Below, piece after piece: positions 35,896 to 58,837 of a DNA stretch of 60,035 nucleotides. The stretch lies in the NCBI GenBank assembly GCA_032718475.1, contig JAUCBJ010002294.1, forward strand, positions 1 through 60,035, in the 5' to 3' direction. Both the position numbers and the translations under genes were made by a program. The notes under the pieces are model-generated. The model did not search any database. It worked only from the letters and a program-made list of their open reading frames with translations, and was not told the origin of the DNA. Position 1 is the stretch's first letter. Each line of letters begins with the position of its first letter. Source of the stretch: Nemertoderma westbladi (Eukaryota; Animalia; Xenacoelomorpha).

Positions 35896-36022
35896 CTGAA
35901 AAATGAAAATCAATCAAAATGTTATCACACAGGTAATAATTATTTTATTGCTAAACATTATATCGGTAACTATTAAACATAAACATATGTTAGAATACAT
36001 TATATATTAATCCTTTGCTTAA

Positions 36023-36410: not shown

Positions 36411-36489
36411 TAAACGGAACCAACGATAAATTATGTTGATTTTTCCTCTCAAGGACCAATATAAATAAATTTGATTGGAACAAAGATTA

Positions 36490-38374: not shown

Positions 38375-38842
38375 TTAAAAGTTTAATAAATTTGAGGTTT
38401 TAATCACTTTAAGGGTTCCTGTTCTTGTTTTAAATGCATATGTTCTAATTTTAAGAATACAGTACGTTTTATTATTTCAATAGTATACACGTTTTCTTAT
38501 TATAAGTGCCCATGTTCTTATTTCAAGTATTTCACGTTTAATTATTTCAATCCTACGTGTTCTTATTTTAAGGCACCTGTTCTGATTAGATGGGAGAGCA
38601 CGTGTCAGGGGGATAAAGTGGCTGATCTTCTGATCAACTGATCAGTTGCTGATGAGGCATGATAGGTGGCGGTTAGATCAGACAATCTTCAACAATTTCC
38701 GGAAATTCCATGTGCTCAACCCATATACCACCACATTTCCTCCCGCATACTATATTTTGTTATTACCGTATAACATCCGTTATCACTGCTTCATGCATTT
38801 TGTCCGAAGCATTGATAATACAATGTAGTCTCTGGCACTTAC

Positions 38843-39970
38843 GTGGTGAACTTGAAGGTAGAAAATCGGACTTATATATGATGCAATATTCCTGTTTCCT
38901 GGTAGACAATAAAGTTCATACCAATAAACTCCACTGTCAAAACTTTCTACCGTGAAATTAATAGACATTTCATTATTCTTATTAATGACTTCATTATTCT
39001 TCATGGATGTATTTCTGTACCAATTTAGTGAGTTAGTTGGAGAACATTGCCGAAATTTAGCATTCAAATTTAGCTTATCTCCATTTAATAACATAAGTTT
39101 ATCGACTGCTTCTCCATTGCTGTTAGTTATAGTAAGATTGCTTTTCACGAAATCTATTTGAACGAACACGGTGCAAATACTATACATGATAAAATTGTTA
39201 CCAGAGCAGTGAAAACTGTAAAATAAATGTTCATCAGTTAGAGGTATAGTAAGATTGTTGGTAAGGGTTTCTGTTTGAATTGGGCCGACATAATTTTTAC
39301 TTTTTACACTGTTAGGCAATTCATCATCATGATCGTCAAGCCATTTGAAATTCTTAGCGTTAGGTACCCAATTGTGAGCCTTGCATTCAATATAAGGTGT
39401 AATTTGTTCAGTATCGTTTTGGAATTGATTCGTAAAAGGATTGAATGTTAGTTGACAAGAAGCACTTCGGGTGTCTGTCTTCCCATTACATCCGCATTGT
39501 AGTAGAGAACCGTAACAACGATCAACAAGTCTAGTGATTAATGGAACACGCTGATTGGGAACAATCCAACCAGTTTTATCACTAAGATGTTTCCCAAAAA
39601 AACAATGATATAGTCTAATCCCGTCGTATTCCCAAATATTTTCGAGTCTATTTATAGTAAATGTAGCAGTGTGACGATCTCGGTCTAGTACAACTGTTCC
39701 TCTAGAAAGGTCGGTTTTATCTTCGGGGTAAACCTGATCGAGACGCAATAGAGTCCTTTTATCATAAAAAGCTCTCATGTACAACCCTATGTCAATGTGT
39801 TCTCCCCATTTTATATCAGTATGATAACACACTAACTGAAGTGTATCTCCTCTAATAACGCAATTTCTCCCAGTTGGCAGATTCATCTTCATAGTGCGGT
39901 TCCAAGTCTGTGAAACCACAGGCCCAACCAAACTCAGAAAGAACAACGAATAAACCAAACTACTATTCAT
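38843..39970 (-). CDS. First coding exon: signal peptide plus about three divergent Ig-like domains; probably spliced to the FBG exon at 35895
   Basis: Signal peptide MNSSLVYSLFFLSLVGPVVS; Ig-like patterns LQLVC..W...ATFTINRL...YHC, IECKA...FKW...NLTI...FHC and LNWYRN...DSGVYW; consensus donor CAC|GTAAGT after codon 376 (phase 0). Confidence 0.75.
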
Positions 39971-40404
39971 TATTGAAATTGCTAGTCAATATATTTTCTG
40001 TTAAAGAAATGTATGTGACGTTTAATATAGAGAGGGGTCAATTGATAAAAAAAATGATTTTTAAGTTTTGTTGGTTTCATATCTAGATAATTTAACAGAG
40101 GATTTCACATTGATTACCACTTTTCTTTTGTGAATTATTGTCGATTTAGTAAGACAAGGTCCGAAGATGATATCCTAGCAAAATTCTCAGAAAATTCGAT
40201 TTAAAGTTTTCAAACACTACCGCTATTTTTAGGAGCCCGCTCAAAGAGCAGGGATAGTTACTGTCAGAAAAAATTGTCAGTGAGGGATATATAATAATAG
40301 CTATCCACATGCTACTGTCTTTATCCATATACCGGAATTGCAGTTTCGTCCTAGCTTTTTTGATTAAATTTTGCAAGTACATTGTTTTTGTGGTTCATAA
40401 TCGC

Positions 40405-40800: not shown

Positions 40801-41440
40801 TATACTTTATTTAATTGATTGATAAATAACAGATTAAAAATTAATTTAAAATTACATACTATTATTTAAGTAAAATATTTATACTTGTACAAAGAGATTG
40901 AAAAGGATTGAAAATATTTCATCACGACCGAGATTTTAACTCAAAAATTTCTGTTCTGAAATACAACGCCTTACACATTAGGCTATCTGTGACATATTGG
41001 AACGTTTGTTTCTCGCACCACGTAGTCAGCGAGCCTTGGCAAACGGTTCATATTTATAAACGTAAATTCTCACATCAAGCAGAGAGAACATTTATAAAAT
41101 TTCTAAAAGTGTGTAATTAACTTGCCCGTAATTAATTTGTCAAATTTATATTCCCCGATAATCACCTGTTTACATACAGGTAATTATCGGGTAATAATAA
41201 TTTTACAAATTAATTGATTCGAATTAAAAATCTGATTTATCTGGAACTTTAATACTAATATTTCCAAATGTATTTCTTTATATTATAGAAGAAAAGAGTT
41301 GAACCGATTGAGTGCGCCGAAGACACATCATCATCTCTTAATATCAGCTCTACGTCCTTCACCCATGATTGTTCCCTTGACGACGATTTGGAGCCGTAAT
41401 GGAAGCGTCGCCTACAAAGACCCGAAAAACCCTCTAACTC

Positions 41441-42651
41441 TGTTCGCGCTTTCAGACCTTTGGCAGTTTAACCCGCCAAATTATGATGTCTTCTAGATAT
41501 TAAATCGCTTTTTAGCCTACGACAAGTATTTGATTCACTACACTAGTCGAAACCAATCCGTGCGCGATCATTCACCCGCTGGTTATACCCGGGAGATTGG
41601 GTTCGACGGTTTAATCTTATTGCTATGTAAGCCTAATGTATTATTCGACTGACAGTATTATATAATCTCTGACAATATTATTCACCTTCGGGGAATATTA
41701 ACAGTTCCTTTAGGACGTGGCGCTCTATCTATATAAACAGAGTTATGACTTAAACTACTCACAACGATATGGTTTAGTTATAATTAACATATATGGCGCA
41801 TTCTTTAGGAAATGCTTCTTTAACAGACTCACTCATACACAATGCTGCACAATACTGCACACTAATCTGCCGATCTTCACTGATTTTAGTCACATATAAA
41901 AGGAACACAGACTGACTCATGTAGGGTCTATCAAATAACATTCGATTCACTTCAAACCACTTTAACATAAGTCACAATCGTTTATCTGTAACCTTTCTCT
42001 CTTACCTTCGGTATATCAAGAATATTGGGTTTCGGGGTTATTTATCGTTATTCCAAATATAATAATTCATCCACAAATATAATGAATAACCGACAGTAAA
42101 TAGCAGTATAAAACAACAACTGAACACTAATTGTTATGAGTTTGCAATGTTTCAGCAGTCAGTAGTATGCCGTGCGTCAGGCAGTTTGATGAGTTTGGTC
42201 GATATGCAGTTAAAGGATATATGTCCTTATAATTAAACCTACTAGTGTTGAGCTAAAAAGCAGAAAAGCACAAAACACTATAAAGCCGTTCTTTCGTGGC
42301 TTTGAAAAACTCGTGACTACGAGAATACCAACTACACTTATTCCACGAAGCTCCCGTTCAACACAGAGGATGAGCAGTGAGATAGGAAAATTTCAGTTCA
42401 GTAGCTCAGGATAGGTTAAAATCCAGGATAACTCAAATTCTATTGGGAGATACAAAAACAGGGCTATGACGCAACCCTCTTAGGCTGGTTGGCCGATTAA
42501 ACAGAGCCCAGATACCTGCGTACCGCAAATCAGCCAATAAGCTGGTAGCTTGCACTATTTTAACTATAGATCCCTTTTTGAGTATTCTAGCGACCGGGGG
42601 GGAACTGGCCAGCAAAGCAAACGAACCAGTTATCCCACAAAAGCTTTTACA
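41441..42651 (-). repeat. 3' LTR
   Basis: Direct repeat of 57627-58837 with about 11 substitutions seen by eye. Confidence 0.97.
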
Positions 42652-42660
42652 CCGCTCCCA
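42652..42660 (-). other. Short polypurine-tract-like sequence (TGGGAGCGG) abutting the 3' LTR
   Basis: Lies immediately 5' of the LTR TGT on the element strand; short and imperfect. Confidence 0.55.
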
Positions 42661-42729
42661 GAAAATGGGATTTAAGTCTATAAAATATACAAAATCACAG
42701 TTTCTAAAATATAAAAATACTCTAAACAG

Positions 42730-45700
42730 TTAGTCTTTCTTGCGCGGACGGCGTTTACGCAGTTTCTTGAGGCTAGCAAGAGTCCTTTTCTCTTTGGGGC
42801 GAGCCACTTTATGAGGAGGGCTGTAGCTCCTAGGCGAAGGGTGCAATACGATTGCATCAGAAGGTGTAGGATTACGATCGGTATACCCGCCGGTCGAAGT
42901 ACCTGGTTGATTAATATCAACCTCAGTGGAGCGAGGTCTAACGGCCTTTAGAGCGCGTCTCAGGACAGCAGCTCCCACGGGTCCTTGACGGGTCGTCTGG
43001 ACACTAGCGGTGGGTGGACCGTGAGTGGTGAGGAACTTTCTCGGTTTAATGGTTCTCTCCAGCTCGCGTTCTCGGGTTCGATATTCATATGGTCGCCGAG
43101 ATATTTCCTGTAGTTCAGGATGCGAGTTTACAAAGATGTCGCCATACTCAGGGTCCTGACGTATAAAATTGATCAGGTGATAGGTGGTTATATCATTAGG
43201 GTTGACGTTTCTAAGGTATTTTCTGACAAACTTGGTGGAAATACACTCACCAACACGCTTCATTAACTCGTAACTTGGTACGCGTGTTTTCTGTTCAATC
43301 GACGCGAATAGGTAAGGATGGAACGCGTAAACTCCCTCGTAAGCTCGTCCAGGGTAGTAGCGATGTCGGGATTCGCAATGTAAATCCGCATTCGCTTCCC
43401 AAGCTCGGATGTATCGCAGGGTGATCATCTCGTCTACGCTCTCTAAATCGCGATTAAAGGGACAATTATAACTTTCATGTCCTTTAAGTTGACAGTAGTG
43501 ACACTGAGTCATAAATTGTGGGCAGACAGCAAAAATATGAGAGTTATTAAGTCTGCAATAAGCACAATATATTTCCATCATCGGTTGTTCGAGGAAATAG
43601 GAGCAAGGTGCGTTGGAGTCGAGAGGGGTGAAGTGGTCTCTCGATGCGCATAATCGACAACGTTTTCGGGAAACGTAGTTGGCGTGTCGATAATCGTACG
43701 CTGTGAGACGTTGTGGACCTTGATACCACTCTATAACATAATCATTGTCACTGCTCCGGGAAGCTGTAGGCTGAATCGCTTCTGATTCCAAGCATACTGG
43801 CTCATCCTCCAACTGCATAGACGAAGTGGGTGCGTCTGTTTCCGTAAGTGGACCCACTGTTTGTATTTCCACGACAGAATATCCCGTAGGTATTCGAGGT
43901 CTTTGTATAACAGATGAATGTAAGTTCTGTATACAAACGTCTTGAAAAACGGCAAATCCAGCGCTACTCAGTTTCTCCGCAGCTGAGTCTCTCAGACTGA
44001 GTTTGGTCAGCGCGCGGTCCTTGAACTGACTATCGACGTTACGGAACGGAGTCAGAAAGCGCCGGAAACATTCGAAACGTATAAACTTATTGTGTTCGTC
44101 TAACTTGGCGAGTTTAGTTCCAAGTATTAATGGGTGAGCGCGTATGGTACGACTGCACACATCGGCTAGCCAACCGGCAAGTGCTGCGTTTTCAAAGATC
44201 GTGTATATAGCTAAGGAAGGACGAAGTGGAACACTCATAAAGCTATATACGGCACCAGGCGCAGTTAACGGTCCATCAAAATATAAACGAGAGTAATGAT
44301 CTCCATATACTTGCTGGTAATTGATAGGATTTCCAACTTTGAAATTCCAACCATATTCTTGAAAGGCAAGATGTCCGATGGATGTCCGTTGTACTTTAGT
44401 AATGCCGCTGGGTGTATTAGCATACATAGTGCGAAAGAAACCTCGGCCTTCGGCCCAAGGAGCAATCAGCTGAGTATCAACGAAAGGGTATGGAATGTTC
44501 TCCATATTCCGGAAGTCGTTTTGGAGATCTCCATAAACAGCTGAGCCGATTTTTAGAATTCTTTCGTTAAACAACATTTCGAGTACAGGTTGGGGTAACA
44601 TTGATCCATCGATACCCATGGCCGGTTTGCGCTCGGTGTCGGTGACGTAACGCTGCGCAAGCTCGAATTGTCCATGTCGAAGTTTCTTTTGTATCTCTGT
44701 AAGAGCTTCAAAAGAATAATCAATTACGTCGGAACACGCTCGAGTGAATACGTGGGTAGAACCAGCGAGTCCTCGTATATGTATCATTCGCGTAGTTCCT
44801 AGTTCTCCCACCGGAACGCTACCTTCGTTGTCATAAGTAACAACGCCATACATCTCGATAACGTTAAGAGTCTCGTTCCATTCTTTAGTGGCGTTTTCGA
44901 GAGTCATTCCCACTGGATGCCACAAAGTAGCGCACTCGTTAGCATTGGGTAAATCTCTATACTTTAAGCATTGTGTAGTATAGGTTTCCACATCTCCATA
45001 TCGTTTTATTCTTTCTTCCTCGAATAACACGTCAAGATTCCAGTGCACTAATCGAGTTTTAATGAATCCATCAAGATTGTACGGAGGTGATATTTCTTTC
45101 TCTATTCTAGAAATATTATACGGTTTTCGAAATGAGTTTAGTTTAACTAGCTGATCTAGATGTTTTTGTAGTTGTTCGAGTTCGACAAGATCGAGAGGAT
45201 TGATTAATGGTAGGAACCTCAGACTATGCGTAGGATCTTCCGGTTTCACCATGTAATATTGCTTCAAATTGACGTAATAAGGGTGATCCTTAATTCCATA
45301 AAATGAGTCCGGCAAAGGTCTAGCGCGTATGTTAACATCGTGCACCATGCGACGGACAAGATCCGCTCTATTGTCCGGAGGCTCAACAAGTACGCCATCG
45401 ACACGAGCAGCCTCGACGGGTGGACGTTGTAGCATGGGAGCGTCAGCAACGAGCTCGTGAGATCTGAGATCAGTATTAACCGGTTGAGGTTGTACCGTAG
45501 CAAAGAGCTTGTCTTTGAAATGAGGAACCATCGAGGGGTGGAGGATCGTTTTGGAATAGAGATCCGTCACGAGAATTTGAGCTTCTGGTTGAGCTAAAGC
45601 TGCTTCTTCCCTCTCAGTCAGCTCTATATGTCTTTCCTCGAGCTGATTTTCCTCCGCTTGTTGTTGCAAGCGCTCGTCCAGGAATTCCTGTAAAGAGTAG

Positions 45701-46983
45701 GTTCGTCCACGTTCGATGTCCTCCTCTAGATTTTGTATTTCTCTATCGAACTGGGGTAAAGCTAGTTCTTTCACCGCTTGGACTTGTTGTTGCAATTTAC
45801 GTTTCTCCAAGCAATCGTAAGTTCCTTTTCCGATTTTCTGCCGAATAGCGTCCAATGCATTTCGTATCACGCTCTCTTCGACTTCTGTAACAGGTTGGAT
45901 CGGAGGAAGGCCAGGACGGTTGTAGGGGTTAAACGGTGATATTAGATGACCGCGTCCTAGTCCAGCGAGGTAAGGTTGGCGAATATCCAACGAACCCACT
46001 ACCGGAGTGCCACCAATCAACTGTTCAGGTAACACTAGATCTTTGAACAGTGAGTACAGTTCGGGAGGATCCGTAATACTATTAGGGTCTAGAGTTTGAG
46101 GTATCACTTGTGAATGGGGAGGTCTGACCGAGTATTCCGGAACTCTGATCATGGGTTTATTCAATGATCGCTTAAGGCGCGCGACCGTAGGTGATACGTC
46201 GAAAAGGTTACGCTCGAAACTCCCATAAGTATATCGCGTAAAACTGTGTTTAGCGCAACGTCTCCGAGGATGTTTATGCCTTTCGATTTGCTGGTTAGGT
46301 CTAGGGCATTCGTCACAGTAATACCAAAGACGCACGTCTTGAAGGGGAAACGCGGGTGATCGCTCTCCAGTTTTACAATATTCCTCCATCTGTTCGAAGC
46401 TATCTGGAACGACAGGTAGCGGTCGATCGGCGGTAAGATACATCATCGTAAAATAGAGCCGTTTGAGTTCCATTATAGGATCTGGATGTATACCTTGAGG
46501 ATATCGAGTTTCGAGATTTTGTTGACTGGCAACATTGAGATAGGTCTCTCGTAAGAATTCTAGATAATCGTTGAAACCGTTACGTTTATCAGGTTCTTCA
46601 ACGTCTTCTCTTTCGAGTTTGTTTCGAATAGAGTTCTCGTGTTCTATTCTCGATTTATCGTTTCGACTCCGCTGGGTATGATATTTAAATAAAACCATTT
46701 CCCTTTCGGTGTCTACATCGTCCGTATCGTGTAAATCGATAGGGTGACCAGTAGTCAAGAAGTCCATATACGTACCATTACGATGCGTATAGCGAGCCGT
46801 GAACTTTCTATAATCCAATTCACGCGTAAGTTGCTCCTGGGACATTGGCGGTTCGATATAACGACCATCGTCCTCCGTAGTAGTTGGATCAGCGTCGCCG
46901 CGTATCAAGCTATCGACAAACGCTTGTAAAGGTAGAGTATATCTCTCCCTGATACCAAGATCATCTTCTATTAATTCAGTCAT
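42730..46983 (-). CDS. Accessory ORF3 of the retrotransposon, 1417 aa: coiled coil, DEDDy-like (RNase D/WRN-type) 3'-5' exonuclease, CCHC knuckles and basic tail
   Basis: Long intact ATG-initiated ORF between integrase and the 3' LTR. ExoI-like VVTYDNEG, ExoII-like ILKIGSAVYGDL, FVDTQLIA, ExoIII-like PLRPSLAIYTIFEN; CAYC..H..C and CHYC..GH..C; no signal peptide or membrane anchor is visible. Confidence 0.8.
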   Translation of the reverse strand: MTELIEDDLGIRERYTLPLQAFVDSLIRGDADPTTTEDDGRYIEPPMSQEQLTRELDYRKFTARYTHRNGTYMDFLTTGHPIDLHDTDDVDTEREMVLFKYHTQRSRNDKSRIEHENSIRNKLEREDVEEPDKRNGFNDYLEFLRETYLNVASQQNLETRYPQGIHPDPIMELKRLYFTMMYLTADRPLPVVPDSFEQMEEYCKTGERSPAFPLQDVRLWYYCDECPRPNQQIERHKHPRRRCAKHSFTRYTYGSFERNLFDVSPTVARLKRSLNKPMIRVPEYSVRPPHSQVIPQTLDPNSITDPPELYSLFKDLVLPEQLIGGTPVVGSLDIRQPYLAGLGRGHLISPFNPYNRPGLPPIQPVTEVEESVIRNALDAIRQKIGKGTYDCLEKRKLQQQVQAVKELALPQFDREIQNLEEDIERGRTYSLQEFLDERLQQQAEENQLEERHIELTEREEAALAQPEAQILVTDLYSKTILHPSMVPHFKDKLFATVQPQPVNTDLRSHELVADAPMLQRPPVEAARVDGVLVEPPDNRADLVRRMVHDVNIRARPLPDSFYGIKDHPYYVNLKQYYMVKPEDPTHSLRFLPLINPLDLVELEQLQKHLDQLVKLNSFRKPYNISRIEKEISPPYNLDGFIKTRLVHWNLDVLFEEERIKRYGDVETYTTQCLKYRDLPNANECATLWHPVGMTLENATKEWNETLNVIEMYGVVTYDNEGSVPVGELGTTRMIHIRGLAGSTHVFTRACSDVIDYSFEALTEIQKKLRHGQFELAQRYVTDTERKPAMGIDGSMLPQPVLEMLFNERILKIGSAVYGDLQNDFRNMENIPYPFVDTQLIAPWAEGRGFFRTMYANTPSGITKVQRTSIGHLAFQEYGWNFKVGNPINYQQVYGDHYSRLYFDGPLTAPGAVYSFMSVPLRPSLAIYTIFENAALAGWLADVCSRTIRAHPLILGTKLAKLDEHNKFIRFECFRRFLTPFRNVDSQFKDRALTKLSLRDSAAEKLSSAGFAVFQDVCIQNLHSSVIQRPRIPTGYSVVEIQTVGPLTETDAPTSSMQLEDEPVCLESEAIQPTASRSSDNDYVIEWYQGPQRLTAYDYRHANYVSRKRCRLCASRDHFTPLDSNAPCSYFLEQPMMEIYCAYCRLNNSHIFAVCPQFMTQCHYCQLKGHESYNCPFNRDLESVDEMITLRYIRAWEANADLHCESRHRYYPGRAYEGVYAFHPYLFASIEQKTRVPSYELMKRVGECISTKFVRKYLRNVNPNDITTYHLINFIRQDPEYGDIFVNSHPELQEISRRPYEYRTRERELERTIKPRKFLTTHGPPTASVQTTRQGPVGAAVLRRALKAVRPRSTEVDINQPGTSTGGYTDRNPTPSDAIVLHPSPRSYSPPHKVARPKEKRTLASLKKLRKRRPRKKD

Positions 46984-48633
46984 ATCTGCTATACGAGTTC
47001 ACCAATATTATAATGAGTTTATATATCGTTAGGCGAGCGGGCGTCGCTGCCTATTTCTCCCTTGCCCCCGGACAGTAAGAGATTCTCAGCGCCGATGTAC
47101 CGCTGTAGCTGTACTTTCGCCAACGACGTAGCTGTACAACGACAACGATAACCGGCACAAGTCACTCCACTGTCCGTCCCAAAGGCTTAGATGTACTTCA
47201 GGTTTTCCTTGGAGAGTTAGGTTACTTTTACGATTGCGACTAGCTACTGTAAACACACTTTAGCAGTAACATTCACCTATAAACTCACAAATACCACACA
47301 ACTTGTCACAACTACACACATTCGGGCCATTTGTCCGTTAGTCAATGCCTTCCAGAATGTCACTGTATTGTTATGTATCCTTGGATACTAGCAGTGCGCT
47401 ATTTATTCCCTATGCTATTCAATGGGACAAGCTTTCTATTGTTCTTTTTACTCAATTCTAATTCTAGCGTGGTTGTTGCTATGGTGACATTATGCAAAGC
47501 TAGCGGTAGAATTAGGGTAATTCCAATGCATACAGATCTGGGATGTTATTTAATAGTAATTCTTTAATAGTCAATGTCCTGTTTTATACATGACTTTATG
47601 AATTTTATCGGCTATTGACTATGTTTGGGAGACTTTCGTACACGCATACGCATAATAATATAAATCTCCGCTCCCTTGATCTATTAATTAATGGAATTTT
47701 GGGAATGTTATAAATTGCGTAAAATGGCAATTTATTAAATTCATTAAAAGACATGAATTTAAATTTATTCCCTGAAATTTTATTATTTGATAATTAAATG
47801 GACATATTTTGATTCTAGAACATGTCTAGGGACACAAGATCCTTAATTCTAAGAAAATTGTCTCTTTAAGAATATCGGTAAATGCTACGATATCTTAATT
47901 GACTAGAATTGTTGAAGGATCTGAATTTTACAGATTTTGACTTATTTGATTTGTAAATATTAACTAATTAATATTTGAGATGGGCACCGATTTATTCCAG
48001 AACTTGTCTGGGGACGTTAACCACTGATTCTATAATTTGTCTTTCAAGTATATCGGTGGGTGCCACGATATCTTAATCGACTAGAATTACAGATGGTCAA
48101 AGGGTTTAACAGATTTATTTTGCGTTATACGCTACTGTTAAAGGGACATCACGCTACTATATGTATTATTTAATATACGGTATGAGAGCAATATCGCACG
48201 AAGCAATGTCAGTGTGAAGAGGCAAGTCGTTTCCAAGGTCTACCCAGAGCTTGGTTTAGCCGAGACACGAGGATCTGAACTTTGCATTCCTAATACTCTG
48301 CCTACCAATAATACTTGAATATAGTAGTGGCTTTATTGTACTTTAATAAGTACGGACATTTCATCTTACTGTAGTTACGTATTTATAATATAATACGGAC
48401 AGTAAGGAAAGAGAAAAATAATTATTTCTTCGCCGTCGCACTAAATATAATATAAGTAATTACGTACGTAATAAACACGAATATATTGCACTATTCTACT
48501 AAATAATCGCTAAATAATATTCTACTAAATTAAATAAAACGATTATAATAAAATTACATAGTAATACATACATAAATATAAAAATAATAAAATAATATAA
48601 AATAATAGAGTCACACGCCCACTCCGAACGATA

Positions 48634-50433
48634 TTAAGTTGGGGAGTCCCTAGATGTCGGTTGGATTAGGGAAGTGGTCGTGGGAAGAGTTTCTTGCCTT
48701 CCATAGTTTCCGGAGAGCTCTCTGTCTCTTTCCAGTAAACATAAACGACCCACTGGGCGATTGAGCTGTTGAGTCTCAAAGACTATCCCTGGTTTCTTAA
48801 AGTTCCGCCGCATGACGACGAGCTCTACTGATCGCACCAAACCATCGCTCGAGATATAAGTCTCGATGATACGTCCTGTTTGCCATCGCTTACGTGGGAG
48901 ATCGGGGTCCACAATAAGCACCATGTCTCCAGCGCTGACGTTTTCTTGCTGCGCAAACCACTTAGTTCGAAGTTGTAGAGTGGGCAGGTAATGTTTCTCG
49001 AAATGGTCAGCGAAACGACGGGATAGCAACTGCATAAGTTGCCAGGTTCGACGGCAGTACTCGTCTCCGTCTGTGATCTCCGATCGTGGGAGCATGGCTA
49101 CGGGCTTCTTCAGTAGAAAGTGCGCGGGTGTTAGCGCTTCCAGGGAATCAGGATTTGAAGAGACTGGCATAAGCGGTCTTTCGTTGAGATAGGCGGCGAT
49201 TTCCTCCATTAACGTCCGCAATAGTTCGTCGGTGAGATAAGCGCGACAAGGCACAATAAAGTGGAACGCAGTCTTCACGCTCCTAATCAATCTCTCCCAA
49301 CTTCCTCCCCACCAAGGGGCGTCGGCGGCGTTGAAGGTCCAGCTAGACGCTGTTATCCTTAGCTGATCGTCCACCTGTCTTTTGTTCCAGTCCTTTACGT
49401 AAGCTTGAATTTCGTTGTTGGCGCCAATGAAGTTCGTTCCCTTATCCGATCTCATCGTGTTACTGGTTCCGAAGCGAGCGATCTGTCGTCGTAAACTCAA
49501 CACGAAGCTGTTGGTGGATAGATCGTTTACCATATCGAGATGGATAGCTCTACAAGTCATACAAACGAAGATGACACACCATCTCTTGACTATAGTCCGG
49601 GCACGATATACTTCAATAGGGCCAAATAAATCCACACCGGTATTAGTAAAGGGTGGTTCATAGAAGCTTACTCTTTCCCTAGGTAATTCTGCCTCTCGCT
49701 GTGTTAAAGGCCTACTGAATGCTTTCCTACAGGGTATGCAGTTCCTAAGAACTTGGTTCAGAGCCCTACGAGGTTTATAAAAATAGTAGCGAGTTCGAAT
49801 TTCGCTCAGAACTCGTTCTCTACCAGCATGATACAGTTTGCTATGAACATCTACAATTATCTTGATTTGTATGTCAAGATTTCTAATAAGTATGGGAAAC
49901 TTAGTGTCAAAGGATAATGGGGCGTTTGTTAGCCGACCTCCAACACGTATTAACCCATCTATCATGGTACTAGAGAAGCGATCCCTTAAGCGCATCTGTG
50001 GATTTCTTAACAACAGGAAATACTTATCGGAATCCTCATAGCATTGTAGGAGTCTCAGCATCTGTTTGTTGGTTTCATCATGCTCATGGTAACTGATCTT
50101 TTCCTTTAGAAACCTGTCGGGTATCTTGTACTTAGGAAGATCTTTAACAACATGGACTCGTGCAGATGTTGATGGAGCCTCATCACTATTGGTCTTTGTC
50201 CCGGAGTAACGATGATGAAAACATCGTTTCAAATAAGTGACAGCTTTACAGAGCCGATTCCAGGAACTGTAGTGACGTATCGCTCTCTGCAAGAGAGGTG
50301 AGAGTCCTTGCGCGATATCTGGTATTCCAGATTTCCAATCCTTGTCACGGATTTCCAAGACTTCTTTGGTCGTGGCGGTGGGTTTCTGATCTAAAGCATC
50401 CTGCTCCGGAAGTAAATAATACAGATAGATCAA
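48634..50433 (-). CDS. BEL/Pao integrase (in a different frame from gag-pol)
   Basis: HHCC motif (HSKLYH...CIPC), catalytic GVDLFGP / SDKGTNF / WERLIRSVK, LTPAHFL and the BEL C-terminal DGLVRSVEL...RPVGRLCLL. Confidence 0.93.
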   Translation of the reverse strand: MIYLYYLLPEQDALDQKPTATTKEVLEIRDKDWKSGIPDIAQGLSPLLQRAIRHYSSWNRLCKAVTYLKRCFHHRYSGTKTNSDEAPSTSARVHVVKDLPKYKIPDRFLKEKISYHEHDETNKQMLRLLQCYEDSDKYFLLLRNPQMRLRDRFSSTMIDGLIRVGGRLTNAPLSFDTKFPILIRNLDIQIKIIVDVHSKLYHAGRERVLSEIRTRYYFYKPRRALNQVLRNCIPCRKAFSRPLTQREAELPRERVSFYEPPFTNTGVDLFGPIEVYRARTIVKRWCVIFVCMTCRAIHLDMVNDLSTNSFVLSLRRQIARFGTSNTMRSDKGTNFIGANNEIQAYVKDWNKRQVDDQLRITASSWTFNAADAPWWGGSWERLIRSVKTAFHFIVPCRAYLTDELLRTLMEEIAAYLNERPLMPVSSNPDSLEALTPAHFLLKKPVAMLPRSEITDGDEYCRRTWQLMQLLSRRFADHFEKHYLPTLQLRTKWFAQQENVSAGDMVLIVDPDLPRKRWQTGRIIETYISSDGLVRSVELVVMRRNFKKPGIVFETQQLNRPVGRLCLLERDRELSGNYGRQETLPTTTSLIQPTSRDSPT

Positions 50434-53400
50434 CCGCAGGTTTAAACAACTTCGATTTACTCGCTCGAGTTTTGGGTTTAACTTTCTCCGCTCCCTTGGC
50501 CTGTCTGATCTCTGCTGTTGTGAGGTGGGGAGGCCATTCTTCTTCTTCTTGGTAGAGAAAGTCGGGTCCTCCTAACCATTCGGGAGTATTTACCAATTCC
50601 TTTGGAGTCGCTCCTCGGGAAGCGATGTCTGCTGGATTAATCGTTCCGGGGCAATGTCTCCATTGGTCCATCGTCGTGCGACTAAGTATGATGGCTACCC
50701 TGTTGGTAACGAAGACGCTGAACTGACAGACTTCATTGGTTATATACTCTAACACGAGTAAAGCGTCGGTCCAATAGACAGTTTTCTCTAATGGATAGTC
50801 AATCTGTTCTGTTACATTCCGGCCGATGGCTGTAGCGTATAGAGCCGCCTTTAACTCCGCTCGAGGAACTTTCAACTTGTTGTTGATTAATGCCTTAGAA
50901 GTAACCAAGGCGACTTTGATTCCATCCGGAGTTTCCACTCTTAGGTAGGCTACTATACCTATTCCCATATCGCTGGCGTCTCCAAACACATGGAGTTGAT
51001 AGGAATACGTAGGGAGAACATGACCAAAATATGAACGGGAAATTATAAAATCCTCGATCGCCGGTAGAGAATCTTCCCATTTCATCCACTTCTTTAATAA
51101 TTCTCCCTTAAGTGGATCGTCCCATGAGTGGTTTTCAAGCCACATTTGTTGCACCAAACTACGAGCAATCAATATAACTGGGCTAATAAATCCCAATGGA
51201 TCGAAATAAGTGCTCAGTATACTTAAGCAAATCCGTTTGGTTCGAACTGGATTATCTCGCTGTTTTAGTTGGAAAAACAGGATATCTCTCTCTGTGTCCC
51301 ATTTCAAGCCGAGTGTCTTGGTTTCTGGCAGATCATCTTTGATCAAATCGAGATCTTTCGCTCCTCGATCCTCCGCAGGGATCGACTCCAGAAACTCACG
51401 GGAGTTGCTGGTGAATTTCGTTAATCGAAACCCACCTCTTTTTAAGCACTCTACCGTTCCTTTAGCGACCTCAATGGCTTCCTCAACTGATGGAAGGGAC
51501 TTCAGATTGTCGTCCATGTATATGTCTCGCTTGATGTTGTCGATCACTTCCTTAGAGAAGGCCTCTCGGTTGTCCTCTGCAGTGGTACGCACTACCGAAC
51601 AGGCGTTGGAAGGGCTTGAGATTATCCCAAAGGCCTGGATGGTCATCCAGTACTCCACCGGTTTCTGGTTGAGGTCTCCTTCGGGCCACCATAGAAATCG
51701 TAAGCTATCTCGATCCCTATCCAACACTTTGACTTGCAAGAACATGCCTTCTATATCGGAGGCGAAAGCAATCGAATATTGTCTCAATCTTAAAAGAATT
51801 CCCAACAAAGATTGAAGTAAGTTGGGTCCGGGTAACAATTCAGAGTTAAGGGATTGACCCATGTAAAGAGCGGAGCCATCAAACACTACTCTCACTTCAT
51901 TGGGTTTACCGGGTTTAGGAACGTAATGGTGAGTTAAATAATACGTTCTTTCAGTCACAGGTGTTTCTTCCGGTACCCTCTCCGCGTATCCCTTATTAAT
52001 AAATTTTTCCAGCTGTGTTTGATACATTGCTTTAGCTGAAGAATTAGCCGTAAGGCGTCGATGGAGTTGCGCGATTCTTTTTTCCGCCAAAGGTCTGTTA
52101 TTGATGAACTTCGGTTCTTTCTTGCGAAAAGGTAAACCGACTTCATACCTACCTTGATCTTTGATGAAACGTGTAGTTGTCTCTTGGATCTGCTTGGCCC
52201 TTTCCTCTTCCACTGATAAGGCCTTATCGTAGGAATTGGGCTCTACTGCCTCTTGCGTAAAGAATCGTACAGCATGTTCATCTCGAGTCTTGGCATTACA
52301 ACGCTCAATGGCGTCATTTAACTCGTCGTTATAAGCTTCTCGTTCAGATGGATAAAGAAGTTGACATAAGTTAACTTGGTTTTGCCAAGCCTCGTTTTCC
52401 TTAAGGAGATCGATAGTATTCTCCTCATCAAAGAGCTGGTGAATGTCGTCGTTATCTGAGGAGTATGGAGTTCCCTCAGTTAAATCGTCTCCTTCACTAG
52501 TATCATCTTCCCATTCACTCACCTGGCAAACTCGCTCTTGCGGTAGTCTTTCTCTGAGTGTTCTACGGGAAGGTCCAGTAAAGTACCAACCTACTCTAGT
52601 TCTTACCGCATAGGTCTGTAGTGGCTGCGGTTGAGCAGGCCGTTTCTCTAATGTCTCCAGCGCCTCATGCGCGTTTTGGCCGATGAGTATTTGCACTCCA
52701 GGATAATCAGTCTGAAATCGAGGTATGTTAAGATGTTGGATGCTCTCATCCTCGTCCCAATTATAAAGGTCTGCTTGGGTAGTAGCGAAGTTCTTTATAG
52801 CTACCATTTTCACTGACCTGATGCTATGTTCTCCTAGTTCGTCCTGGGGGGTGGACAACGCTCCTACATAATAATCCGCTGTTATTGTGGATTTCCAGAC
52901 TTGCATAATGCCTGACATGTTTAGCGTAGTTCGGAACTTGGGTTGTCCAGCAAATATGTCTTCGGCTAGCTCTTGGTCGATGAATGTTCCTGTACTACCG
53001 GAGTCAAGGAGGGCGTTCACTACGTAACTCCGTTTAGGTCCGTGAACCCTTACCTGTACCACAGGAAACTCTCGGATCCCTACATTGGAAGATGGCTCTT
53101 TCCCAGATGGTTGTCGCTCAGAAGTAGTTAGAGTGAGGTCGCTGTCTGTATCTTTTTCATATGTGAGTGCTCGATACACTGCGGTATTTATCAGGTAACA
53201 GGATTCGTTTTCGTCGGAGAACTCATCCGTATAGAATCCTTCCATCTCAGATTGGTCAGTGTCGTTCACATCACTGAATTGGACATGTAGTTCGGAATCA
53301 CTTACCTGATTCGGAGTATTTCGCTCGAATTCAGCGTGCAACAAGATATGATGTTTCGCACCACACTTAGCACACCTTATGTCAGAGAAACAGGTTCGCC

Positions 53401-55420
53401 GTTGGTGTCCTTGTCTGAGGCAATTATAACATAACCGCTTATCCCACATGACTTCGCGTCTCTCAGTTAATGATTTCTTCAGGAATTCATCACACATGTT
53501 CAAACGGTGGGTCCCGTCACACAGCGCACATTTCGGTTTGATGTTACTCACCTTATTCTGAGTCACATTGTGTACACTTGCTTTTTCTTCGGGCTTTCTC
53601 ACCTGAATTCTCTTGGGAGACGTAGGAGGAGTTTTTCTTACCTGTTCTCTCCTGTCATTTGTTCGAGACTTGAATTTACTCACCTGATCTTTAGGCATTT
53701 TATTCACGTAATAAGATCTATCAGTGTCCTTCCCGCTATCTTCTCCTTGAGAAGTCTGGCTTTCGCCGTCGTCTGTGTAACACACTGGTGTTACCCTTCT
53801 CCTAGAGACGGGTTTTTCACTTACCTTGTTTTCCGGTGTCTTCTCTCTGGATTGCTTGAGGAGTTGCAATTTCACTTCTCCATCCAGGAATGACATGAGA
53901 TCTGCCATGGTAGGGTCTCGTCGTTGTTGTTCCATCATATATAGTACTTTCTTATCCCAGCGTGTGCCTACCCCACCTTTCGGTAAAGTAGAAGCCACAG
54001 CTCCAATGACCATAGAACTTTGGTATTCATGAGACTTACCTAACCAATCTAATTGTCTACAGATCTCTTGAATCTCATCGGAAAACTCTATTATCCCACT
54101 GCTGATGAACTTTCTGGGCGCTACTAATTTTGCATATAAATACTTAGCGATATTATTCCTATTACCATACCTGATGTTTAGTGTATCCCAAACTTGTCTT
54201 AATCCGTCTGGATGTCCAATAAACTTTAACGCCATTAACTTGGGAGATCTTTCCAAGCACTCGATGAGGAACCTAAGTTTCTCTCCATTAGACAGTACAG
54301 AGTTCTGTATGTTATCTTTGTAATATTCATTAAAAGGTAACCATTTCATCTCATCTCCATTGAACTTGACGATCTCTCCCACCTTTACCGCTTGCCGGGC
54401 TTCGGTTCTAGCCATTTGACGCGTAAAACTTTCTTGGGCCATCGTGTTATTTAATATCGAGTTATCGGTATATAAATTTCTCGGATTATGATCCGATCTA
54501 TAGGGAATATCATTATCAACAGGTCTATAATTACCCTTAATAGGGTTCACTATAGGAGTTTCTACTTCGCTAGCAGTATAGATGCGTGTAGGCTCCACAC
54601 CTTGCGCATGAGATACTTCAGACCTAACGGGTTGACACATTGTTACAGGGGGTGGTGGTATACCCCTTTGCGTATTTACTAATTTATCGCGCTCTAGCGC
54701 GATACTTTGCTGCACTTCTTGCAACTCTAGTCTACTTTCCCTTACCGTGCCCTTAAATTGCTGGACAGTCTCCTGCATCTGCCCGAGCAGGATATCCATC
54801 CCCCGTCGTCTCTCGTCCACCCATTCGACCGCCGAAGCGGGAGTCGCCAACGATGTAGCGGGCGGACGAGGGACAACGGGCGACAAATTATGAATATTTC
54901 GCTCGGGGTCCAGGACCTGAACTGTCTCCTGGGCAGTTCTACGGGGCACAGGTAGCTTAGTGCTATGCAGAGGGAATTTAGCGGTTACTTCAGGGAGCAC
55001 AGGTGTGTCTATCACAGTAGGGGTGATTTCAAGAACAGGCCTAATTATTTCAGGCTCATCTACTATAGTAGGGAGTCTTTCGATTTTAATTATTTGGTCT
55101 GTGGGTTCTGTACTACCTAAATTGGTGCTATTTAGTTGCCTTCTAACAGCTGGAGGCAGATCAGGCAATTTCTGACGGTGGAATGTTCTTTTACGTCTAC
55201 TTAGACGAGATCTATTTCCCTTGCCTTCATTGTCGGTGGTATCGCCTTCCTCAGATGATGTATATCCCTGTCTTTTGGGAGTAGATCGATTCATCATCTG
55301 CATATTACTAGCTGTTAACTGTTTGTTTATGCAGTCTTGATTCTCTTGAATGTTTTCCAATTCTAATTGGTTGGTTTCTTCAGCCGCTCTCCGTTCTGCT
55401 TCTACCACTGCCACCGCCAC
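50345..55420 (-). CDS. BEL/Pao Gag-protease-RT-RNase H polyprotein (first ATG at 55303)
   Basis: Gag FNGD..KW..F...EKLRFL, three BEL knuckles (CALC..H..C, CYNC..GH..C, CAKC..HH..LH), protease ALLDSGS, RT YMDD, RNase H LHVFGDAS...PRAEL...NPADIASRG. Confidence 0.95.
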   Translation of the reverse strand: MAVAVVEAERRAAEETNQLELENIQENQDCINKQLTASNMQMMNRSTPKRQGYTSSEEGDTTDNEGKGNRSRLSRRKRTFHRQKLPDLPPAVRRQLNSTNLGSTEPTDQIIKIERLPTIVDEPEIIRPVLEITPTVIDTPVLPEVTAKFPLHSTKLPVPRRTAQETVQVLDPERNIHNLSPVVPRPPATSLATPASAVEWVDERRRGMDILLGQMQETVQQFKGTVRESRLELQEVQQSIALERDKLVNTQRGIPPPPVTMCQPVRSEVSHAQGVEPTRIYTASEVETPIVNPIKGNYRPVDNDIPYRSDHNPRNLYTDNSILNNTMAQESFTRQMARTEARQAVKVGEIVKFNGDEMKWLPFNEYYKDNIQNSVLSNGEKLRFLIECLERSPKLMALKFIGHPDGLRQVWDTLNIRYGNRNNIAKYLYAKLVAPRKFISSGIIEFSDEIQEICRQLDWLGKSHEYQSSMVIGAVASTLPKGGVGTRWDKKVLYMMEQQRRDPTMADLMSFLDGEVKLQLLKQSREKTPENKVSEKPVSRRRVTPVCYTDDGESQTSQGEDSGKDTDRSYYVNKMPKDQVSKFKSRTNDRREQVRKTPPTSPKRIQVRKPEEKASVHNVTQNKVSNIKPKCALCDGTHRLNMCDEFLKKSLTERREVMWDKRLCYNCLRQGHQRRTCFSDIRCAKCGAKHHILLHAEFERNTPNQVSDSELHVQFSDVNDTDQSEMEGFYTDEFSDENESCYLINTAVYRALTYEKDTDSDLTLTTSERQPSGKEPSSNVGIREFPVVQVRVHGPKRSYVVNALLDSGSTGTFIDQELAEDIFAGQPKFRTTLNMSGIMQVWKSTITADYYVGALSTPQDELGEHSIRSVKMVAIKNFATTQADLYNWDEDESIQHLNIPRFQTDYPGVQILIGQNAHEALETLEKRPAQPQPLQTYAVRTRVGWYFTGPSRRTLRERLPQERVCQVSEWEDDTSEGDDLTEGTPYSSDNDDIHQLFDEENTIDLLKENEAWQNQVNLCQLLYPSEREAYNDELNDAIERCNAKTRDEHAVRFFTQEAVEPNSYDKALSVEEERAKQIQETTTRFIKDQGRYEVGLPFRKKEPKFINNRPLAEKRIAQLHRRLTANSSAKAMYQTQLEKFINKGYAERVPEETPVTERTYYLTHHYVPKPGKPNEVRVVFDGSALYMGQSLNSELLPGPNLLQSLLGILLRLRQYSIAFASDIEGMFLQVKVLDRDRDSLRFLWWPEGDLNQKPVEYWMTIQAFGIISSPSNACSVVRTTAEDNREAFSKEVIDNIKRDIYMDDNLKSLPSVEEAIEVAKGTVECLKRGGFRLTKFTSNSREFLESIPAEDRGAKDLDLIKDDLPETKTLGLKWDTERDILFFQLKQRDNPVRTKRICLSILSTYFDPLGFISPVILIARSLVQQMWLENHSWDDPLKGELLKKWMKWEDSLPAIEDFIISRSYFGHVLPTYSYQLHVFGDASDMGIGIVAYLRVETPDGIKVALVTSKALINNKLKVPRAELKAALYATAIGRNVTEQIDYPLEKTVYWTDALLVLEYITNEVCQFSVFVTNRVAIILSRTTMDQWRHCPGTINPADIASRGATPKELVNTPEWLGGPDFLYQEEEEWPPHLTTAEIRQAKGAEKVKPKTRASKSKLFKPAVDLSVLFTSGAGCFRSETHRHDQRSLGNP

Positions 55421-56781
55421 TGCCGCCGTTGAATACCTACTGCTATATTACAGTCTAAGCAAGTCTAGTAATTCAGTATTAACTGCTAGCCTAGTAATTA
55501 ATTACCGATATTGCTACTCAATGTAGAGTGATATATATAATATATTAGAATACCGGTATGCTTATATTATATATAAGTATTATCACAGACTAGGTTTATC
55601 TCAGAATACCGGTATAATTTTAGCACAAATATATATAAATATATAATAGGCCTATCGGGAATACCGGTATACAGCTTACAGTTTGTAGTATATATAATTC
55701 TGGACTAGAATTAATTATAAGTACCGGTATAATTTCAGCCTAAATTTACAGAAATAAAGATAATAGGCCTATCGTAAATACCGGTATATCAATTATTTTA
55801 AATAATTGAATTTCTGTACTTTAGGGTTACTTGGTTACTCTACTTACTTTATTACCGTTATTTGAGCAGTAGTCCAACTGATATTGAGACCTAATGGTTG
55901 TATGGTAGGCCTACTATTTATAAATCGTTAGATTTGATTTATAATATATATATACCCGTTTAATGGGTTTTGTCAATGTTTGAAATAAATGTTATTATTT
56001 CTGGGGGGTAATCACTGCACAAAGCGGTACGCTTTCAGTGAAGTGTTACTTATAAGACACTAAAACAAATAATGCTAATTGACCTAAGTTACTTATACTA
56101 CAAATTACGTACGATTCGGGTTGAGATTACAATCTCTAAATAAACACAAAAATTTACAAAAACACAAATACGAATTTTTAGGGTAATTTTACAAGAAGTC
56201 TACAAACCAGCCTAACAAAGGGTTAGAAAATCTGGTTATTACAATGGACAGGGTACTACGGTATTTGAAAATAATAAGTAGTAGTAAATACACTGCGTTG
56301 TCTAGATAGGAAAATACCACCGCCTGACGACCTATAGCCGTATCGCTATAGGTTCTACGTTATGTATCACGGAGTGTTCCTACCTAGAAGCTAATAGAGC
56401 TAATCGAAGGTGCCTATCAACCACTTTACAACACAAATATAATGCCTACAATAATTACTTTCGGAAAGCACTGTACACTAAACCCTAAATTAGGTACGAG
56501 TACTTGTACAACAGATAATCAGTAGTTAAATATACTTGAACAGCTAAAAGAACCACGGCATCTGCTGGAGTAACCGGTGCACAAAATCACCAGTCTTTAC
56601 CTACGCCTAGCAGCCCGTGTAGTACTGGGGTTAATTTAACTATAACGGTATGTATAACAAACACAATTACTGTAGGAACAAACTTGGGGAATGAATGTTG
56701 CGGATAATCGCATAAACTCTGAATAATAAATATTACGCAACGCGTACAAACTACTTAAACAAAATGCAGACCAAATACCGA

Positions 56782-57293
56782 CAGACTACTATCAAGCCTA
56801 AACAAACTACGGTATATGCAGACTCTGAAATAATTAGGTAGTATGCGTTCTAACCCAGTAGTACGACTTATTCTTTAATTGGGGGTTTACCTTACAGCAT
56901 TCGCTGCCCCTACTTCCTAACCGTTCTTTATCGGACAAGTGATCTACACACGCTGCAATCCGTTCAGACCCAACAACAGCCAGACAACTATCCAGCCTAC
57001 AAATTATCTAAATAAAATTATACGCTACCTGTACAGACTTACACAAACAAAGTACAGACTAAACGATGGCAGACTACTCTCAAGCCTAAATAAACCACAG
57101 GACATGCAGACTCCGAAATGATTAGGGAGTATGCGTTCTAACCCAGTAGTACGACTTATTCTTTAATTGGGGGTTTACCTTACAGCATTCGCTGCCCCTA
57201 CTTCCTAACCGTACTTAATCGGACAGGTGCTCTACACACACTGTAATCCGTTCAGACTTAACAGCAATCAGACAACAGCTCGGCCTACAAATT
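56782..57293. repeat. Direct duplication (period 288 bp) in the retrotransposon 5' leader
   Basis: 56782-57005 is similar to 57070-57293, with a long identical core AGTATGCGTTCTAACCCAG...CTTCCTAACCGT. Confidence 0.9.
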
Positions 57294-57614
57294 GTCTGTA
57301 CAATCAGATCAGGCTTACACGTCTTCTGTTCAATACTGGCCTACAAACAAATAAAACTTGACAGAAATAAGTAAAATCTCAATAAAAACCAGGGCGGCCG
57401 TTCCCTGATTAAGTACTAAGACCTACAGGTATACAACAATCAAATCGAATAATACTAATGTACTTATACGGGAAGTACCGGTTAGGACAGTTAGGCCTAT
57501 GGACCTACAGAAGTACCGGTTCTTGCAATTGGGCCTACTGACCTACAGATATACCGTTCAGGTTTACCGGTTGACCGGTATTTTCAACCTTATTGCTTAC
57601 TGCAATAAAGAAGC

Positions 57615-57626
57615 TATATCCTTTAA
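57615..57626 (-). other. Non-tRNA primer-binding-site position, complementary to an LTR-internal 12-mer
   Basis: The element strand reads ...GAACA|TTAAAGGATATA; the LTR element strand contains TATATCCTTTAA (58407-58396 and 42221-42210). Confidence 0.7.
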
Positions 57627-58837
57627 TGTTCGCGCTTTCAGACCTTTGGCAGTTTAACCCGCCAAATTATGATGTCTTCTAGATATTAAATCGCTTTTTA
57701 GCCTACGACAAGTATTTGATTCACTACACTAGTCGAAACCAATCCGTGCGCGATCATTCACCCGCTGGTTATACCCGGGAGATTGGGTTCGACGGTTTAA
57801 TCTTATTGCTATGTAAGCCTAATGTATTATTCGACTGACAGTATTATATAATCTCTGACAATATTATTCACCTTTGGGGAATATTAACAGTTCCTTTAGG
57901 ACGTGGCGCTCTATCTATATAAACAGAGTTATGACTTAAACTACTCACAACGATATGGCTTAATTATAATTAACATATATGGCGCATTCTTTAGGAAATG
58001 CTTCTTTAACAGACTCACTCATACACAATGCTGCACAATACTGCACACTAATCTGCCGATCTTCACTGATTTTAGTCACATATAAAAGGAACACAGACTG
58101 ACTCATGTAGGGTCTATCAAATAACATTCGATTCACTTCAAACCACTTTAACATAAGTCACAATCGTTTATCTGTAACCTTTCTCTCTTACCTTCGGTAT
58201 ATCAAGAATATTGGGTTTCGGGGTTGTTTCTCGTTATTCCAAATATAATAATTCATCCACAAATATAATGAATAACCGACAGTAAATAGCAGTATAAAAC
58301 AACAACTGAACATTAATTATTATGAGTTTGCAATGTTTCAGCAGTCAGTAGTATGCCGTGCGTCAGGCAGTTTGATGAGTTTGGTCGATATGCAGTTAAA
58401 GGATATATGTCCTTATAATTAAACCTACTAGTGTTGAGCTAAAAAGCAGAAAAGCACAAAACACTATAAAGCCGTTCTTTCGTGGCTTTGAAAAACTCGT
58501 GACTACGAGAATACCAACTACACTTATTCCACGAAGCTCCCGTTCAACACAGAGGATGAGCAGTGAGATAGGAAAATTTCAGTTCAGTAGCTCAGGATAG
58601 GTTAAAATCCAGGATAACTCAAATTCTATTGGGAGATACAAAAACAGGGCTATGACGCAACCCTCTTAGGCTGGTTGGCCGATTAAACAGAGCCCAGATA
58701 ACTGCGTACCGCAAATCAGCCAATGAGCTGATAGCTTGCACTATTTTAACTATAGATCCCTTTTTGAGTATTCCAGCGACCGGGGGGGAACTGGCCAGCA
58801 AAGCAAACGAACCAGTTATCCCACAAAAGCTTTTACA
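57627..58837 (-). repeat. 5' LTR
   Basis: Direct repeat of 41441-42651; located upstream of gag on the minus strand. Confidence 0.97.

Follow-up and report, generated by a model that had tools for sequence, protein, structure and literature searches.

A BEL/Pao retrotransposon of Nemertoderma westbladi with a primer-binding site complementary to its own LTR and a putative exonuclease gene

Organisation of the element

The analysed window, i.e. a 60,035-nt stretch of contig JAUCBJ010002294.1 of Nemertoderma westbladi, contains on its minus strand a BEL/Pao retrotransposon of 17.4 kb in total (58837-41441). Alignment of its two LTRs (5' LTR, 57627..58837; 3' LTR, 41441..42651; 1211 bp each) shows that they are 99.1% identical, with 11 mismatches, and end in TG...CA; a 5-bp target duplication flanks the element on both sides, and the insertion is a young one. 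The original prediction had placed the system at 42210..57626, a span that is too small, as the LTRs run from 58837 to 57627 and from 42651 to 41441.

Between the LTRs follow, all on the minus strand, a primer-binding site (PBS, 57615..57626), a 5' leader of 2.2 kb that includes a 288-bp duplication (55448..57614; duplication at 56752-57297, 86%), and a gag-protease-RT-RNase H frame of 1700 codons from stop to stop (50345..55447; PF05380 at E 8e-36, and PF03564). This frame contains YMDD and the four acidic residues of RNase H, and its gag carries Cys/His knuckles of its own. In this copy the integrase frame (48634..50571; PF17921, PF18701) is not in phase with the ORF that precedes it; it is followed by ORF3 (42730..46983; an open reading frame of 1417 aa) and by a short stretch rich in purines next to the 3' LTR (42652..42660). 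The LTR also contains, downstream of the presumed primer, a candidate donor site for splicing (58185..58191, a consensus match only), from which a subgenomic RNA for gag or ORF3 might be made.

The pol domains occur in the Pao-type order PR-RT-RH-IN (PF05380, PF03564, PF17921, PF18701), PF05380 is present in all of the best 120 pol homologues, and pol is thus of the BEL/Pao and not of the Ty3/gypsy chromovirus type. Domain order, Pao-specific Pfam families, LTR ends and the 5-bp target duplication all agree with BEL/Pao elements as described in the consulted part of a survey (PMC3118150), which gives their usual size as 4.2-10 kb; the present element differs in its 17.4 kb and in having ORF3 rather than env. 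Contigs of one sequencing run (the library type being a guess) cover 30 of 30 bins of the element. A search of viral contigs found relatives of neither pol nor ORF3. The one match in an Rfam search was below threshold and outside the element.

A primer-binding site complementary to the LTR

The PBS (57626-57615 on the minus strand) starts directly after the end of the 5' LTR with zero gap and lacks TGG. As originally predicted, it is complementary to the element's own LTR: over 12 nt it pairs without mismatch with LTR positions 431-442, that is, with 58407-58396 in the 5' LTR, and a window-wide search confirmed the second copy, at 42221-42210 in the 3' LTR, while finding no further occurrence in the window. 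The end of the LTR is fixed independently of the PBS, by the LTR pair and the target duplication, and the chance of an exact 12-nt match at offset 0 is about 3e-4 given the composition of the LTR. Complementarity of 12 nt to the LTR occurs at 2 of 14,945 internal positions, one of which is the PBS itself; when the search was loosened to offsets of 0-4, G-U pairs and spliced forms, the score of the PBS was equalled by 1 of 60 internal 30-mers drawn at random. The match is contiguous in this element and does not run across an intron, and no spliced form of its LTR yields a longer one. There are no tRNA genes in the window.

ORF3, a putative exonuclease gene

The original prediction of an RNA-binding 3'-5' exonuclease in the element finds support in motifs and zinc knuckles, its assignment to a family being moderately supported. 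A Pfam search with ORF3 gave no match, and its first 640 aa have matches of no kind. Two remote homologues (E 5.8e-8 and 1.5e-4), alike in architecture, nevertheless have all motif positions in common with it, and a profile built from these two alone recovers ORF3 at E 5e-14 (leave-one-out). The predicted DEDDy-like domain spans approximately aa 705-945 (44149..44871), with D718, E720, D819, Y927 and E931 as its candidate catalytic residues. D718 and E720 (ExoI, D-x-E) and D819 (ExoII) are invariant across three families; ExoIII, Y927-x3-E931, has in register an E in P0002 and a D in P0003 by manual reading, whereas MAFFT aligned at this point the preceding 14-aa block, which has Ser.

The language-model look-alikes of ORF3 are PF01612 3'-5' exonucleases (0.93, the family resting on 50% of members); a second look-alike score of 0.89 is a lead only. 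Structure models were unusable (pLDDT 31-33) and Foldseek, although it repeatedly returned EXD2, did so at E 0.33 or worse. A PDB sequence search with the single domain returned nothing, and profile searches gave EXD2 at E 1.4 only. No homologues near its full length were found, the alignment search yielding P0002 only. Further downstream, a Cys/His cluster of nucleocapsid-like zinc knuckles (aa 1109-1175; 43459..43659) matches retroviral nucleocapsid in a profile comparison (E 6e-4 to 8e-4). Within the family, 11 of 12 variants among those listed are synonymous, and ORF3 is under purifying selection.

Conservation among relatives

We collected 94 relative loci, of which 23 could be tabulated for the PBS and 13 have an LTR end fixed by an LTR pair; in the other 71 the LTR/PBS junction is absent or cannot be placed, and rows with a 'purine tract within 400 nt' were circular and hence left uncounted. 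Loci L011, L025 and L028 were included after reading by eye. An exact self-complementary PBS of 10-13 nt is present in 10 of the 13 pair-fixed relatives (the misses being L003, L047 and L082), and in all ten the match spans a GT(A/G)AG...YAG intron inside the LTR. In controls for nine of these positives, the score was equalled by 0 of 60 random 30-mers for seven of them, and by 1 and 3 of 60 for the other two. A blind scan of LTR ends at 13 loci produced seven spliced matches, two contiguous ones and four blanks, with 4 of 104 shuffles reaching 10 nt. In none of the 23 tabulated relatives do the 6 nt adjoining the LTR include TGG. The letters of the PBS vary between families, and the LTR matches each of them, 0-4 nt from its end.

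The contiguous form is seen only in the present element and in a probable relative, L011, the LTR end of which is an inferred one. The two contiguous 12-mers of the blind scan were false: that of L033 sits inside gag, and that of L085 inside a 1.64-kb LTR, where the real match is a spliced 11-mer. A quick tree places the element on a long branch (1.59), at no more than 44% identity to the relatives, so that these are distant and details may not be common to the element; the 18 spliced and 3 contiguous labels placed on it, one of the latter (L085) being wrong, cluster no more than in shuffles.

In none of the tabulated relatives is there room for ORF3, since the distance from the RT-RNase H match to the 3' repeat is 0.5-2.6 kb in 23 of 23, against 8.05 kb here. 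Over the 94 loci the exonuclease profile gave nothing better than E 0.13-0.21, as opposed to 5e-14 for ORF3 in the leave-one-out search, and ORF3 is found in 0 of 10 pair-fixed and 0 of 10 inferred-end positives. L011, which shares the contiguous form, likewise lacks it. The original prediction had coupled the exonuclease to the priming and had named beforehand, as a refuting outcome, self-complementary relatives without ORF3; as 10 of the 13 pair-fixed relatives are of precisely this kind, exonuclease and self-complementary PBS probably do not form a single system, although the exonuclease may act in trans in relatives that lack the gene.

RNA folding and transcription start

With the RNA 5' end placed 0-2 nt upstream of the 12-mer (58396..58407), its helix with the PBS has a predicted probability of 0.77, which drops to 0.35-0.6 at 4-12 nt and to 0.01 or less from 15 nt upstream; the folding spans about 800 nt, a distance at which long-range prediction is unreliable. 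A local 5-bp hairpin (58399..58414) is predicted to overlap the 12-mer once upstream LTR sequence is present on the RNA. The same hairpin is predicted for the 3' LTR (42213-42228), where bases 5-9 of the 12-mer have unpaired probabilities of 0.01-0.19 and bases 10-12 of 0.31-0.45, and where the 12-mer would thus be partly locked. The primer-PBS duplex is AT-rich (-11.6 kcal/mol), and the loop of approximately 770-780 nt that it would close exceeds those of the tabulated relatives, even the ones with long LTRs.

This LTR has no TATA box at -30 of the 12-mer, and TATA near -30 occurs in only two positive relatives (L078 and L089). It does have TATAA at -10 which, if used, would put the RNA start downstream of the 12-mer and argues against a primer at the 5' end. 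Across families there is an initiator-like bias. In 13 of 18 families an A stands two positions upstream of the pairing stretch (p 4e-5, uncorrected for the 48 positions), and 12 of 18 have a pyrimidine-A within -2..+1 (p 0.007); both counts rise by one after correction of one site (L085), the p values being those of the counts before this correction. Predicted folding and this bias favour the 12-mer as the transcript start, and the TATAA at -10 speaks against it. The nearest poly(A)-like signal lies 595 nt downstream of it.

Interpretation

The sequence evidence supports tRNA-independent self-priming that extends to the relatives. We consider it most probable (roughly 60%) that priming is Tf1-like, by the 5' end of the RNA and throughout the lineage, and that the element acquired ORF3 separately, as an accessory gene. 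Transcription would likely start at or just upstream of the 12-mer, the 5' end would fold onto the PBS as predicted, and the RNase H encoded by the element would release the 12-mer as primer; in most relatives the primer would be assembled by splicing out the LTR intron, the present element having the contiguous form. ORF3, a selected gene most likely encoding an RNA-binding 3'-5' exonuclease, might trim small RNAs of the element or the host at the particle stage, the substrate being a guess, and priming in the lineage would be independent of it.

Self-primed reverse transcription is described for Tf1/Tf2 and the Tf1/sushi group of Ty3/gypsy (PMC7175516) and predicted for the plant Tcn1 and TAR lineages (PMC6317226), in the portions of these papers that we consulted. 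As in Tf1/sushi, there is no tRNA site, the PBS complements 10-13 nt of the own LTR and RNase H is intact; unlike them, this is a BEL/Pao element with a 1.2-kb LTR and a primer that lies some 770 nt from the PBS, and most of its relatives need splicing. The likeness to Tf1 is one of working and not of membership, and includes a start site and a primer cut that are predictions. For ORF3 the nearest parallels are the DEDDy exonuclease ORF3s of the bdelloid LTR elements Juno and Vesta and of Athena/Terminon, for which the consulted parts of two papers already propose 3'-end processing of element RNA (PMC5408684, PMC6431247). By description, these too are post-pol ORFs; they have RNase D-like motifs in which Glu stands in place of one Asp and, in some, Cys/His motifs; in the present ORF3 it is the last Asp that is replaced by Glu, while the rotifer paper writes DEED. 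The host element, the 1417 aa and the orphan N-terminus of 640 aa set it apart.

A closer role for ORF3 is conceivable in two forms, both unlikely. It may be a family-specific helper of 5'-end priming, its knuckles annealing the primer across the loop or its nuclease polishing an imprecise cut; the nucleocapsid resemblance, the unusually long loop and the purifying selection agree with this, but gag already has knuckles. Alternatively, a broad aquatic-animal BEL/Pao lineage may self-prime mostly via a host-spliced primer, this family having lost the LTR intron and gained very long LTRs as well as a DEDE-type zinc-knuckle exonuclease that matures the primer instead of, or after, the RNase H cut.

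Just as doubtful is a primer supplied in trans. It would be a short transcript of the LTR alone, which most relatives would splice and which host nucleases or RT would process, throughout the lineage and with no part for ORF3. First exons of 3-10 nt, which 5'-end priming implies, are unusual, and in L085, L087 and L089 the 3' end of the primer adjoins AATAAA or lies within 10 nt of it. The distance from primer to poly(A) signal is inconsistent across elements, however (1 to 595 nt), and folding in cis is the simpler route kinetically, with Tf1 as a precedent. Even less probable is a chance match, or a role of the match in RNA folding or packaging, with a host RNA such as an internal tRNA fragment as primer: some Copia elements use half-tRNA primers that lack TGG, according to the part consulted of PMC6317226, but a fixed host RNA does not explain why the PBS letters change by family and the LTR follows each time.

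The least probable reading, largely refuted as a general system, is the one originally predicted, in which the PBS pairs with the 12-mer of the 3' LTR, or with a short transcript of the LTR, and the tail is cut back by ORF3, replacing both the tRNA and the RNase H cut. Both components are real in one element, the helix stops precisely where the LTR ends, candidate catalytic residues and knuckles are present in ORF3, and the family, sharing the contiguous form with L011 only, may differ from the rest. The tRNA-free part of the proposal is supported; as the RNase H motifs are intact, nothing there needs replacing. In the 3' LTR the predicted hairpin occludes part of the 12-mer, about 600 structured nt up to the poly(A)-like signal would need removal, and this trimming would delete sequence needed by minus-strand transfer. 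Penelope-like elements are not known to have an LTR-type PBS. DEDDy ORFs occur in them as well, as stated in the consulted part of PMC5408684, which also counts against the coupling. A single coupled exonuclease-priming system is, in sum, not supported.

Priming in BEL/Pao elements has so far barely been documented: the main text of four surveys (PMC554778, PMC3118150, PMC6238403, PMC8556966) contains neither 'PBS' nor 'tRNA', and in the literature searched we found neither a self-complementary PBS nor an exonuclease gene described for BEL/Pao, in line with the novelty originally suggested. The exonuclease ORF3s that this literature describes for rotifer elements now have a putative counterpart in BEL/Pao. 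Self-complementary PBSs in many families would add a third LTR superfamily to those with tRNA-free priming, and the spliced forms would link priming to host splicing, with the present element as their intron-less counterpart and a simple substrate for studying the primer cut.

Anatomy and classification of the element

Both features belong to one complete LTR retrotransposon, which runs on the minus strand from 58837 to 41441: the primer-binding site (PBS, 57626-57615) and ORF3, a frame of 1417 aa (42730-46983, minus strand) that lies downstream of pol after a 1.6-kb spacer. Its LTRs (58837-57627 and 42651-41441) are 1211 bp long, and because the two copies differ by only 11 mismatches and are accompanied by a 5-bp target duplication, the insertion is young. 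By Pfam the pol is of the BEL/Pao type, and PF05380 (Pao family) was present in all of the best 120 of 1917 pol homologues (identity 39-45%). In the window's copy the integrase frame is shifted relative to the gag-RT-RNase H frame (50345-50571), through either a lesion or a programmed shift; many relatives have one frame for both. Short duplications, at spacings of 288, 115-117 and 178 bp, occur in the leader and the pol-ORF3 spacer (55588-57297; 47865-48088).

ORF3 as a putative nuclease

No Pfam match was obtained for ORF3, and its predicted structure models were unusable; a full HMMER scan yielded two remote homologues, P0002 and P0003, both with an exonuclease-like domain and with zinc knuckles in the same order as in ORF3. 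D718, E720 and D819 are invariant in the three proteins. On a manual reading the last motif, Y927-x3-E931, is in register with a Glu in P0002 and an Asp in P0003; MAFFT instead aligned 14 residues that precede this motif and carry Ser. A profile of P0002 and P0003 alone recovers ORF3 among 3318 frames (E 5e-14), the Atlas neighbours of ORF3 point to PF01612 exonucleases, to which P0002 has a weak match (E 0.2), and EXD2 was weakly matched in PDB searches. Contigs from one public run, 80-100% alike, span the whole element. Of their 1892 differences 40 are listed, with a bias toward well-supported ones; ORF3 contains 12 of those 40, and 11 of the 12 are synonymous. As a gene ORF3 is real and under selection, and its product is probably a DEDDy-type nuclease. 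The original prediction of an exonuclease in the same element as a self-complementary PBS is confirmed as to co-presence, the nuclease assignment being probable. The N-terminal 640 aa (45067-46983) gave no Pfam match; a helical, acidic stretch lies in this part, as does a small cluster of Cys and His residues around aa 224-246.

A primer-binding site complementary to the LTR

The first 12 bases past the 5' LTR pair without a mismatch to LTR positions 431-442 (58407-58396 and, in the 3' LTR, 42221-42210), as had been claimed, and TGG was not found in these 12 bases. Comparison of the two LTRs defines where the LTR ends, so the complementarity is not a blind match. Its chance, from composition, is ~3e-4; a 12-nt complement to the LTR occurs at 2 of 14,945 internal positions, one being the PBS, and in a looser search one of 60 controls was as good. 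The proposal of tRNA-independent priming is likewise supported: self-priming by the element is likely, and relatives share the self-complementarity. None of the four acidic residues of RNase H is missing, in keeping with what the Tf1 mechanism requires (PMC7175516). In the open-access literature searched (among others PMC5408684, PMC6317226, PMC3601003, PMC554778, PMC3118150, PMC7175516, PMC6431247, PMC8220671, PMC6238403 and PMC8556966) neither self-priming nor an exonuclease ORF3 was found to be described for BEL/Pao elements; an earlier description of either may exist.

Self-complementarity without ORF3 among relatives

Among 94 fetched loci with a related pol (79 metagenome and 15 genome-bin contigs) no exonuclease was detected, the best E-values being 0.13 in one search and 0.21 in another. 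The LTR 3' end was fixed by two LTR copies in 13 loci, none of which has TGG after the LTR or room for ORF3, and ten of which have an exact 10-13-nt PBS complement inside their own LTR, in every case spanning a GT(A/G)AG...YAG intron of 67-451 nt. Three loci missed: in L003, which shares 99.6% identity with the positive L005, the start of the LTR was misplaced; in L047 the LTR end is doubtful; and L082 is a decayed copy, in which 9 of 10 bases match across an intron by eye. Ten further loci with an inferred LTR end were positive, the same criterion having been used to pick them. One of these ten, L011 (682-1002), has a contiguous 10-nt complement and no ORF3, and is a probable second intron-less form.

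The PBS letters vary from family to family while the pairing persists. Complements split by a canonical intron, with 3-10 nt ahead of the donor and 4-8 nt past the acceptor, were found in the LTRs of L004, L014, L028, L040, L045, L049, L078, L087, L088 and L089, and further in L005, L016, L019, L025, L042, L046, L057, L076 and L085, which makes a splicing-dependent primer a candidate across many BEL/Pao families. Two blind contiguous 12-mer matches proved false, which advises caution on unanchored matches; a perfect 12-nt inverted match at L085:1861-2056, within a 1.64-kb LTR and with one arm over a TATATAA box, is not a PBS. L021 and L022 are tandem BEL/Pao copies with shared LTRs on a single contig, and L080-L094 are BEL/Pao contigs within bacterial metagenome-assembled genomes, most likely through animal host contamination.

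Because positives occur without ORF3 or room for it, the self-complementary PBS is a lineage trait independent of ORF3. The proposed coupling of self-priming to the exonuclease is not supported by the co-occurrence check: the two do not go together in the 13 pair-fixed relatives, 10 of which are self-complementary without ORF3. That ORF3 is a family-specific primer-maturation factor within the self-priming lineage is given roughly one chance in eight. Rotifer LTR elements and Penelope-like elements both carry DEDDy ORFs according to PMC5408684, a spread to be expected of an accessory gene that is mobile.

Which copy of the 12-mer primes

The 3' LTR copy of the 12-mer, originally put forward as a possible source of the primer, is disfavoured relative to the 5'-end copy by three indirect lines, namely the predicted helix, an initiator-like context and intron retention. 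For an RNA starting 0-2 nt upstream of the 12-mer, long-range folding, a weak predictor, gives the 12-bp helix a probability of 0.77, which becomes 0.35-0.6 for starts 4-12 nt upstream and is gone from 15 nt, since the upstream bases and the 12-mer make a predicted hairpin; in the 3' LTR context the core of the 12-mer is predicted to be paired. Across 18 families, the paired segments tend to begin in an initiator-like context. Cutting of the primer 3' of the splice junction, at the RNA 5' end, would explain why relatives retain the intron in their LTRs. Points against a 5'-end start are that a TATA was not found at -30 of the element's 12-mer, one being present at -10 instead, and that the element is on a long branch.

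Remainder of the window and the host

Units of 15 bp are repeated in a long array at 580-2400 that also shows periods of higher order, and MITE-like sequences, in which inverted repeats of 34-72 nt flank short repeats, lie at 35997-36436 and 36483-36935. A weak Rfam match to mir-39 at 41135-41210 (31 bits versus a threshold of 62, E 0.02) is probably due to chance. Single long host frames at 7916-12418, 18067-20589, 21464-22519, 26364-27659, 34924-35913 and 38783-39985 are presumably Slit-like (1500 aa), INTS8-like, epoxide hydrolase-like, IFT52-like, fibrinogen-like and Ig-domain, respectively; Pfam gave a weak match on them, to the Ig domain only. The host, Nemertoderma westbladi, looks intron-poor, and this may be linked to the intron-less primer of the element.
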